A stretch of DNA of 64,000 bases from Corythoichthys intestinalis (lineage: Eukaryota). Numbering within the stretch: the first letter of the stretch is position 1; each line of letters begins with the position of its first letter. Both the position numbers and the translations under genes were made by a program. The notes below the pieces were generated by a model. It saw only the letters and a list, made by a program, of their open reading frames with translations, did no database searches and had not been told where the DNA came from. Below are positions 22,901 through 26,204 of this stretch, one piece after another. Location of the stretch: the NCBI RefSeq assembly GCF_030265065.1, contig NC_080408.1, forward strand, positions 22,855,480-22,919,479, written 5' to 3'.

Positions 22901-23191
22901 GAGTCGAAAGAGAACGCCACAAAGGCTAGTTGCGAGATTGTTGAAATAATTAATTTAGGGCTGTCAAATGATTAAAATTTTTAATCGAGTTAATCACAGC
23001 TTAAAAATTATAATTAATCGCAATTCAAACCATCTATAACATATGCCATATTTTTCTGTAAATTATTGTTGGAATGGAAATGTAAGACACAAGACGGATA
23101 TATACATTCAGCATACTGTACATAAGTACTGTATTTGTTTACTATAACAATAAATCAACAAGATGGCATTAACAATTACATTCTGTTAAAG

Positions 23192-23423
23192 CACAGGTGT
23201 CAAACCGATTCCAGAAAGGGCCAAGTGGGTGCAGGTTTGCTTTCCAACCAATGAAGAGGACACCTTTTCACCAATCAGATCTTTCACACGTGTAATCAGT
23301 TAAACTTTGTCAGGTGCTGCTTGTTTCAGTAGGAAGTTCATTGGTTAAACTCTCTGCACGGTATCGGTTAGAACAAAATCCAGCTCCCACTTGGCCCTTT
23401 CTGGAATCTGTTTGACACCTGTG
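23192..23423. mobile_element. 232-bp MITE (terminal inverted repeat CACAGGTGTCAAACCGATTCCAGAAAGGGCCAAGTGGG) with an 8-bp target-site duplication TGTTAAAG
   Basis: Perfect inverted termini. Flanked by direct TGTTAAAG at 23184-23191 and 23424-23431. The copy at ~35395 has the uninterrupted site ctgtGaaagcgatcc. Confidence 0.8.
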
Positions 23424-23736
23424 TGTTAAAGCGATCCATGGATAGAAAGTCTTGTAGTTCTTAAAAGATAAATGTTAGTACAAGTTATAGGAATTTTATA
23501 TTAAAAGCCCTCTTAATGTTTTTGTTTTAAACAAAATTTTCATGAAAAAAAAAAAGAACTAGCAGCTCGCCATTGTTGATGTCAATAATTACACAATGCT
23601 CATGGGTGCTTAAGCCCATAAAATCAGTCGCACCCAAGCGCTAGCAGAGAGCGACAAAACTCCAAAAAACACAAGTAACAAGTGGAGATTGCACTGTGCT
23701 GTCATTTTAATCTCTTTGAGCAGGGCATGGGCGTTA

Positions 23737-25363
23737 CAGTGCCTTGCAAAAGTATTCGGCCCCCTTGAACCTTGCAACCTTTCGCCAAATTTCAGGCTTC
23801 AAACATAAAGATATAAAATTTTAATTTTTTGTCAAGAATCAACAAGTGGGACACAATCGTGAAGTGGAACAAAATTTATTGGATAATTTAAACTTTTTTA
23901 ACAAATAAAAAACTGAAAAGTGGGGCGTGCAATATTATTCGGCCCCCTTGCGTTAATACTTTGTAGCGCCACCTTTTGCTCCAATTACAGCTGCAAGTCG
24001 CTTGGGGTATGTTTCTATCAGTTTTGCACATCGAGAGACTGACATTCTTGCCCATTCTCCCTAGCAAAACAGCTCGAGCTCAGTGAGGTTGGATGGAGAG
24101 TGTTTGTGAACAGCAGTCTTCAGCTCTTTCCACAGATTCTCGATTGGATTCAGGTCTGGACTTTGACTTGGCCATTCTAACACCTGGATACGTTTATTTT
24201 TGAACCATTCCACTGTAGATTTGGCTTTATGTTTTGGATCATTGTCCTGTTGGAAGATAAATCTCCGTCCCAGTCTCAGGTCTTGTGCAGATACCAACAG
24301 GTTTTCTTCCAGAATGTTCCTGTATTTGGCTGCATCCATCTTCCCGTCAACTTTAACCATCTTCCCTGTCCCTGCTGAAGAAAAGCAGGCCCAAACCATG
24401 ATGCTGCCACCACCATGTTTGACAGTGGGGATGGTGTGTTCAGGGTGATGAGCTGTGTTGCTTTTACGCCAAACATATCGTTTTGCATTGTGGCCAGAAA
24501 GTTCAATTTTGGTTTCATCTGACCAGAGCACCTTCTTCCACATGTTTGGTGTGTCTCCCAGGTGGCTTGTGGCAAACTTTATACGAGACTTTTTATGGAT
24601 ATCTTTGAGAAATGGTTTTCTTCTCGCCACTCTTCCATAAAGGCCAGATTTGTGCAGTGTACGACTGATTGTTGTCCTATGGACAGACTCTCCCACCTCA
24701 GCTGTAGATCTCTGCAGTTCATCCAGAGTGATCATGGGCCTCTTGGATGCATCTCTGATCAGTTTTCTCCTTGTTTGAGAAGAAAGTTTGGAAGGACGGC
24801 CGGGTCTTGGTAGATTTGCAGTGGTCTGATGCTCCTTCCATTTCAATATGATGGCTTGCACAGTGCTCCTTGAGATGTTTAAAGCTTGGGAAATCTTTTT
24901 GTATCCAAATCCGGCTTTAAACTTCTCCACAACAGTATCTCGGACCTGCCTGGTGTGTTCCTTGGTTTTCATAATGCTCTCTGCACTTTAAACAGAACCC
25001 TGAGACTATCACAGAGCAGGTGCATTTATACGGAGACTTGATTACACACAGGTGGATTCTATTTATCATCATCGGTCATTTAGGACAACATTGGATCATT
25101 CAGAGATCCTCACTGAACTTCTGGAGTGAGTTTGCTGCACTGAAAGTAAAGGGGCCGAATAATATTGCACGCCCCACTTTTCAGTTTTTTATTTGTTAAA
25201 AAAGTTTAAATTATCCAATAAATGTTGTTCCACTTCACGATTGTGTCCCACTTGTTGTTGATTCTTGACAAAAAAATTAAATTTCATATCTTTATGTTTG
25301 AAGCCTGAAATGTGGAGAAAGGTTGCAAGATTCAAGGGGGCCGAATACTTTTGCAAGGCACTG
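23737..25363 (-). mobile_element. Tc1-family transposon, 1627 bp, terminal inverted repeat CAGTGCCTTGCAAAAGTATTCGGCCCCCTTGAACC... (Passport / Frog Prince-like termini), flanked by TA
   Basis: About 100-bp inverted repeats at both ends. TA at 23735-36 and 25364-65. The unoccupied site gcgtTAatttcgtcaa is preserved at ~36145. Confidence 0.9.
23953..24972 (-). pseudogene. Tc1 transposase gene of 340 codons, intact except for one in-frame TAG at codon 304 (..ELELFC*GEWARMSVSRCAKLIETYPKRLAAVIGAKGGATKY*)
   Basis: ORF track 24061..24972 (303 aa) has the full N-terminal paired/HTH region and the DDE residues ([23 protein letters not shown]). The remaining 36 codons downstream of the TAG are still in frame. 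Confidence 0.85.
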
Positions 25364-26204
25364 TAATTGCGTCAAATATTTTAACGTGATTAACTTAAAA
25401 AAATTTATTACCACGCAATAATTTTGACAGCCCTAAATTAAAAAATAATAATAAAGCAAATGTGACACACAGAATGGCTTGCTAAAATTTGCTTAAACAT
25501 ATTGTTCTACGTAAAGGACGTCAGCAAAGGTCGGCCCTCCACATTTTTACCACACCATATCTGGCCCCCTTTGCAAAAAGTTTGGACACCCGTGATCTAC
25601 AAGGATGCCAACTTGGTGATTATAATACTATACACACACACACACAGCAGGAAAAGCAGTACATCATTTTCAATTAAACCCACCCGGAAGGCACGGACTG
25701 TAGGTTAAAAAAAAAAAATCCAAGCGTTTAACACTGGAAAGTCTGGGATTTTTTTTGTTATTCTTAGAGTCTAGCCAGAAGTTGCAAGCAATCAGTATTT
25801 CCCAGTAATTGGTCATTTACCAAACAAAACAGCTGAAGTGGGCTATTAGCTAAATGCCATTTCGCTAACTAGCTCTCCTCTTGACTTACTGACCAGAAAA
25901 GCCAAGTGGCTCTTCTTTAGACTGGCCAGTGGTTTAAGGGGACATGCTCCATTCTGAAGCTAATGCTAATGCTAGGAGTTACATTCAGCATTTGATAAAC
26001 ACTCAGCACAGACCTTTAAAGGCTAAAGCAGCATTGGCATTTGTCTCCTTTTCTAGTCTCCCAAGCCATGTTTTTAGCTTGTCATTTTGACTTAATGGTC
26101 ATGAAAAAACTATTCGTCGACAATATATTTTCCTTATAGTCATTGTTGACGAAAACCACACTGCTCGCAGTCCTTATTTTTTACCAAGTTTGTTTGGTGT
26201 ACAG

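Follow-up and report, generated by a model that had tools for sequence, protein, structure and literature searches.

The hallmarks of hAT transposons are 8-bp target-site duplications (TSDs) and termini of the form YARNG (PMC3014272), and where transposons are nested, the TinT method derives a chronology from the nesting (PMC3014933). Two further reports document templated and fold-back insertions at DNA breaks (PMC11724301, PMC12426944). Here we analyzed a stretch of 64,000 nt from Corythoichthys intestinalis (NC_080408.1; hereafter the window), in which a hAT-like non-autonomous element (the host; copy A, 22956-25435) carries both a miniature inverted-repeat transposable element (MITE) and a Tc1 element, and in which a sister copy of the host (S, 35064-36232) lies some 12 kb away. 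An earlier note on this DNA had treated the sister, given as 35015-36233, as a simple copy and a clean empty-site control for a three-layer nest of transposons. We found that S does belong to the host family but is rearranged, and that it contains a tract nearly identical to A that includes one end of the Tc1. Three cut-and-paste events in A together with a templated patch in S form the joint reading of the locus that we consider quite probable.

We compared the window with itself to find relatives of the host, a search that covered these 64 kb, and obtained three: S and one segment in each of two copies of a related element, E2a and E2b (Table 1). Copy A is 2480 bp long as found and 611 bp long after removal of both insertions and their duplications. 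At the site of the MITE, each of the three relatives holds the target 8-mer once with nothing inserted (TGTGAAAG in S, TGTGAGAG in both E2a and E2b), and A is longer than all of them by 240 bases (232 + 8). At the site of the Tc1, the three relatives all read GC(G/A)TTAATT(G/T)CG with one TA (in S, GCGTTAATTTCG), and A is longer by 1629 bp. Since S, E2a, and E2b have each target site once and unoccupied, the duplications in A are genuine, and both the MITE and the Tc1 are later insertions into the host, the former with a true 8-bp TSD and the latter with a TA duplication. The earlier note had itself raised the possibility that the TGTTAAAG repeat around the MITE is part of the host consensus rather than a product of insertion; we found nothing in favor of this, and with the 8-mer present only once in each of three uninterrupted relatives its probability is negligible. 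Both TGTTAAAG copies in A have a T where the relatives have a G, indicating that this substitution is older than the MITE insertion.

These observations agree with the earlier note as to the hAT-like, non-autonomous character of the host, the exact extent of the MITE and its perfect duplication, the exact extent of the TA-flanked Tc1, and the empty MITE and Tc1 sites in the sister. The host element and its terminal inverted repeat (TIR) are likewise real, but the limits it had proposed, 22955-25436, are one base too wide at each end. The anatomy of the elements, their TSDs, and their empty sites are all read directly from the letters of the window, as are the mosaic of identity and the junction sequences in S that we describe below.

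S looks older than A and inserted independently of it, since neither copy shares its flanks with any other place in the window and their TSDs differ; on the same grounds, a segmental duplication that would have produced both copies is ruled out. Both ends of S are of the TAGGG type. Its 5' end is rearranged: after the initial TAG come a short forward piece (35067-86), the element's first ~155 bp in reverse orientation (35087-35255), and then two further inverted pieces, one of them a copy of the TSD and flank (35256-35287) and the other a short segment (35288-35315). A minus-strand alignment joins S 35087-35256 to A 22955-23110, and the 35 bp at 35032-35066, which comprise flank, TSD, and TAG, are identical (100%) to the reverse complement of 35253-35287. 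Palindrome centers lie near 35086 and 35315. This arrangement is consistent with a fold-back duplication followed by a deletion within one arm.

We next counted substitution identity between S and A part by part along the alignment. Identity to A was 92.9% in the inverted 5' part and 91.4% across 35316-35428, rose to 98.8% across 35451-35709 and 98.7% across 35710-35871, and fell to 86.7% across 35872-36155 and 89.7% at the 3' end. When the counts were pooled, the tract showed 413 matches and 5 mismatches (98.8%) versus 536 matches and 63 mismatches (89.5%) in native S (Fisher test, p = 1.8e-10). The tract is composed of an inverted 22-bp core (35429-50), a host segment corresponding to A 23478-23736 (35451-35709), and the left end of the Tc1, corresponding to A 23737-23895 (35710-35871). 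Thus S carries 162 bp that represent the first 159 bp of A's Tc1, at the same TA. At the positions where the two inverted repeats (IRs) of A's Tc1 differ by substitution, this fragment has the base of the left IR in 6 of 6 cases; at the single 3-bp indel it matches the right IR, which suggests that A's left IR lost those bases later. The middle region of the host is present twice in S, once in A-like form (35451-35709) and once in native form (35893-36155), the two being 87% alike, which indicates that sequence was added to S and not replaced.

These results bear directly on the use of S as a control. An empty Tc1 site does exist in S, with its TA at 36154-36155, but it lies in the diverged 3' part, and a copied, occupied version of the same site lies 445 bp upstream of it, so that the claim of a clean control fails. 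In favor of S as a plain sister copy never hit by either insertion, with the window a record of the order of a three-layer nest, is the existence of both empty sites in S; the Tc1 fragment at the same TA within a 98.8%-identical tract, however, together with the inversion and duplication at the 5' end, makes such a history very improbable. The nest itself has two layers rather than the three proposed earlier: the MITE and the Tc1 are not nested in each other but sit 313 bp apart, both directly in the host.

The boundaries of the tract differ in kind. On the left, the tract is in register with both S and A. On the right it is out of register, with Tc1 sequence (...TTTAAACTT) joined to native S (...CTTATAAATTG) and only CTT shared between them. 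At the left edge sits the 22-bp core, whose orientation here is opposite to that in A, in the native 3' copy in S, and in E2b, and which is bounded by the hexamers CTTGTA/TACAAG; when reverse-complemented, the 35 bp at S 35423-35457 that contain this core are 100% identical to A 23451-23485. The flipped core fits a short template switch at the CTTGTA/TACAAG inverted repeat. When a broken end enters a paralogue, is extended on it for some distance, and is then end-joined, the signature is one homologous junction combined with one microhomology junction, as seen here.

The same boundaries allowed us to weigh whether the host and Tc1 could have moved together as a composite under a hAT transposase, the tract in S then stemming from transposition of, or recombination with, that composite. 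hAT transposases act on element ends whatever lies between them, and the E2 family shows that composites of the host family have been amplified as units in this window. The tract boundaries, by contrast, lack a TIR or TSD, the left one being in register with S and the right one lying inside the Tc1 IR, and insertion by transposition is therefore ruled out. What is left of this idea is recombination with another A-like donor, which is possible and amounts to a variant of the templated patch; as a separate account, we judge the moving composite to be improbable.

Under the joint reading of three cut-and-paste events and a patch, the locus would have arisen as follows. A 611-bp hAT-like element would first have inserted at a staggered cut, creating an 8-bp target duplication. 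The 232-bp hairpin MITE would have inserted into this host, duplicating TGTTAAAG, and in a further event a Sleeping-Beauty-type Tc1 would have inserted into the host 313 bp further on, duplicating TA. Later, a break would have occurred inside S at about 35428/35872, and the left broken end would have invaded the matching position of the paralogous A or of an A-like copy. Synthesis would then have run rightward across 280 bp of host sequence and into the first 159 bp of the Tc1. A single small switch at the 6-bp inverted repeat would have flipped the 22-bp core on the way, and rejoining at the 3-bp microhomology (CTT) would have left 443 bp of templated sequence in S. A second repair scar of the same kind may be seen in the 5' fold-back of S. 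The repair mechanism, the direction of copying, and the role of A as donor are what we infer. We also entertain, as a more doubtful suggestion, that a single repair event with several template switches produced both the 5' fold-back and the 443 bp copied from a paralogue ~12 kb away, including the outer Tc1 end with its binding site.

In its in-register junction, its 3-bp microhomology, its small inverted segment at a 6-bp inverted repeat, and its nearby fold-back, S resembles the templated and fold-back insertions at double-strand breaks that PMC11724301 and PMC12426944 describe under synthesis-dependent strand annealing with template switching and microhomology-mediated end joining. It differs from them in that the tract is long (443 bp) and is deduced from one genome sequence rather than observed experimentally.

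Several points weigh against this account. Any A-like copy holding host and Tc1 could have served as donor of the patch in place of A, and the search for such copies covered 64 kb. The 35-bp inverted flank copies are 100% identical, yet the palindrome arms near both centers differ at 3 of 46 positions, a combination that sits awkwardly with a single recent event. For the host, the TSD of copy A is imperfect (6/8) and lies in AT-rich sequence, and the window yielded no autonomous hAT partner for comparison. The MITE ends in CACAG, which departs from YARNG at the third base, where it has C and not a purine. Finally, an assembly error in S is possible. Long-read assembly is known to go wrong through palindromic fold-backs and through joins from one repeat to another, and such failures, along with the perfect 35-bp flank copies, could suggest that the A-like tract, the fold-back, and the 22-bp flip are artefacts of assembly or of a chimeric read and that the real S is a simple diverged copy. 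Against this, 5 substitutions and a 3-bp indel separate the tract from A, the tract's match to A's right IR at the indel suggests an ancestral state, and the short palindrome arms are mismatched as well, all of which looks like real, aged sequence. We therefore regard an artefact as unlikely and retain the templated patch.

The earlier note had stated that insertion order can be inferred from this window alone. The host preceded both the MITE and the Tc1, which is firm, though trivial, since both are nested inside it. It is equally firm that the Tc1 preceded the patch, because the patch contains part of it, and the patch is recent relative to the host family (~1.2% versus ~10% divergence). The relative order of MITE and Tc1, on the other hand, cannot be read from the window, because neither guest is nested in its neighbor and the MITE site lies to the left of where the patch begins. 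We considered whether the tract might order them and rejected it for this purpose, as it starts at ~A 23451, past that site. Between that site and the start of the tract are 32 bp with 2 differences from A; by our own Poisson estimate, made with the substitution rates given above, native S is favored about 4:1, and we thus weakly favor native S sequence for this stretch. The logic is that of TinT-type chronologies, in which an inserted element is younger than the element that holds it; it orders only host versus guest, and here the two guests are side by side.

The Tc1 is of the Sleeping Beauty type and belongs to an already annotated family of fish transposons. Its IRs (23734-23954 and 25143-25366; about 215 bp each) are 95-97% complementary, and each contains two direct repeats (23745-67 and 23928-50; 25148-69 and 25334-55) spaced 183 and 186 bp apart, the inverted repeat/direct repeat (IR/DR) layout. 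The TA target duplication was found on both sides, with a single TA at the empty sites of the relatives. In the transposase frame, the Pfam domains HTH_SB, HTH_Tnp_Tc3_2, and DDE_3 (PF25787, PF01498, PF13358) all scored above cut-off, the catalytic domain aligns without gaps to the SB100X structure 5cr4 (E = 1e-87), and the spacing DNDPKH...NPIENLW (D...D-34-E) is the same as in SB100X. The closest database proteins are also 339 amino acids long, with 91% identity to a 339-residue cluster and 90% to proteins from Oncorhynchus mykiss and Lepisosteus oculatus, matches that by themselves most likely point to a ray-finned fish. The frame is interrupted by one in-frame TAG at codon 304 of 339 (24061-24063), a position that is Gln in SB100X, and as it stands the element is not autonomous. 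Because both IRs and all four direct-repeat sites are kept, a transposase provided in trans would probably still be able to mobilize it. The element therefore resembles Sleeping Beauty and the salmonid-type Tc1 elements in its TA duplication, its IR/DR structure, and its 339-residue transposase with Sleeping Beauty and Tc3 helix-turn-helix and DDE domains, and differs from Sleeping Beauty in the stop at codon 304 of the window copy. Elsewhere in the window, a diverged Tc1 transposase remnant at 55953-56368 shows 65% DNA identity to 24119-24544. We also noted an NCBI entry for a 62%-identical, 339-residue protein of this fish Tc1 group that bears the name "IS630 family transposase [Escherichia coli]", probably as a result of fish or vector contamination in a bacterial record.

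In copy A, the TIR TAGGGCTGTCAAA occupies 22956-22968 and its exact complement 25423-25435. The repeat finder reported a longer perfect inverted repeat of 19 nt (22950-22968/25423-25441), an extension that exists because the left flank AATTAATT is palindromic; all relatives in the window start at TAGGG, which sets the limits of the element. The YARNG motif, as TAGGG, marks both termini of A and of S and also the 5' terminus of each E2 copy; at the 3' terminus, E2a has the degraded form TAGAG and E2b the degraded form TAAAG. Duplications of 8 bp were found throughout the family, matching at 8/8 positions in S and E2b, 7/8 in E2a, and 6/8 in A. We found no open reading frame of the host's own in copy A, those inside it belonging to the inserted Tc1, and no autonomous partner with the same ends, nor any hAT transposase, in the 64-kb window; such a transposase has a BED finger, an RNase-H-like DDE domain, and a hAT dimerisation domain. 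By its structure, the host is likely a member of the hAT superfamily: like maize Ds and the vertebrate hAT-N families, it has 8-bp TSDs, TAGGG termini, short TIRs, and no coding capacity, and it differs from them in being seen here without an autonomous partner or transposase. A candidate host end at 17269-17281 (minus strand), with the YARNG-type sequence TAGAGCTGTCAAAATAAACG, was rejected as it is unlike the host beyond the terminus and belongs to another family. E2a and E2b, which are 87% identical to each other, represent another hAT-like element with the TIR TAGGGTTGTTCCGATC; both hold the same truncated piece of the host family, from ~A 23093 to the host 3' TIR, indicating an older nesting that was amplified as a unit.

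The MITE is short and non-coding, with TIRs, a TSD, and a predicted hairpin of -57.3 kcal/mol (z = -10.2), as expected for this structural class. Its terminal ~38 nt are nearly perfectly self-complementary and its 90-nt arms are 77% complementary. The flanking duplication of TGTTAAAG is perfect (8/8), a match expected by chance at ~2e-5 at the base composition of the window (our own calculation). This length of duplication is that of hAT elements; P, Merlin, and Zisupton are further superfamilies with 8-bp TSDs. With a duplication that fits and CACAG ends that miss YARNG, the MITE is likely hAT-like, though this assignment is not secure. High copy number in the genome is a further trait of MITEs; the window holds a single copy of the 232-bp element. 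A solo end of another MITE (...GTTTGGACACCCGTG) lies at 25480-25594, some 45 bp beyond the right end of copy A, and at 25580-25594 it loosely resembles the ends of the 232-bp element; we found no partner for this end in the window.

Table 1. Coordinates of the transposons, their duplications, and the parts of S (window numbering).
Feature	Position	Strand	Evidence
Left TSD of copy A, AATTAATT	22948..22955	+	matches right copy at 6/8 positions
Host copy A, hAT-like non-autonomous element	22956..25435	+	TIR at both ends; relatives in window
Right TSD of copy A, AATTAAAA	25436..25443	+	read directly
MITE TSD, left copy, TGTTAAAG	23184..23191	+	read directly; relatives aligned
MITE, 232 bp, ends CACAGGTGTCAAAC	23192..23423	+	hairpin; TSD; absent from three relatives
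MITE TSD, right copy, TGTTAAAG	23424..23431	+	read directly; relatives aligned
TA duplication left of Tc1	23735..23736	+	read directly
Tc1-like element, Sleeping Beauty (IR/DR) type, 1627 bp	23737..25363	-	transposase gene on minus strand; inverted repeats
TA duplication right of Tc1	25364..25365	+	read directly
Transposase frame, 339 codons	23953..24972	-	translation; Pfam; SB100X alignment; database proteins
Left TSD of S, TTTTTTCT	35056..35063	+	identical to 36233-36240
Rearranged 5' end of S	35064..35315	.	match to A on minus strand; reverse-complement flank
Native forward part of S	35316..35428	+	unoccupied MITE site TGTGAAAG at 35397-35404; 91.4% to A
Putatively A-derived tract in S, 443 bp	35429..35871	+	identity step; left-IR bases
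Native 3' part of S	35872..36232	+	unoccupied Tc1 site TA 36154-36155; 3' TIR ends CCCTA at 36232; 86.7% and 89.7% to A
Right TSD of S, TTTTTTCT	36233..36240	+	read directly
E2a, related hAT-like element	45767..46743	+	host-family segment, both sites unoccupied; TSD GTTTTAAC / GTGTTAAC (7/8)
E2b, related hAT-like element	47960..48976	+	host-family segment, both sites unoccupied; TSD ATTCCTGG / ATTCCTGG (8/8)

Just 3' of S, the segment 36241-36381 encodes in frame ...AHQDKVSVLRLTYSLIISASSDRTVKLWD..., which matches the C-terminal beta-propeller of TEP1 (Pfam PF25048, E = 2.4e-14, above cut-off), and a WD40 match was also obtained at 36241-36385 of the window. A coding exon likely starts at about 36271, ~40 bp downstream of S, placing S near a likely splice acceptor (...cacccag/G at about 36270), and the transposons are probably intronic insertions in a TEP1-like gene. 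Metagenome contigs scanned with an exact 22-mer for further copies of the host family gave 0 matches, the exact 303-residue open reading frame was not on record, a full-text literature search with the three TIR strings gave only chance matches to primers, and an Rfam scan of the window returned no family at threshold. All three elements are of known kinds, and nothing here goes beyond known transposon biology; the locus is an ordinary pile-up of cut-and-paste transposons, probably within a fish intron.

Fish genomes routinely contain nested DNA transposons whose TSDs can still be read, and the locus has little import beyond annotation. The templated patch in S is the only item of even mild interest, and it undermines the control that had been proposed. 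Its lesson is that a nearby empty-site copy may be patched from the occupied copy, so that identity should be checked along the whole alignment. The S locus is also a tidy natural case of templated insertion between transposon paralogues, suitable for teaching or as a data point in a survey. If the more doubtful suggestion of a single multi-switch repair event were true, such events would allow transposon termini to arrive at new loci, and chimeric elements to form, without transposition.

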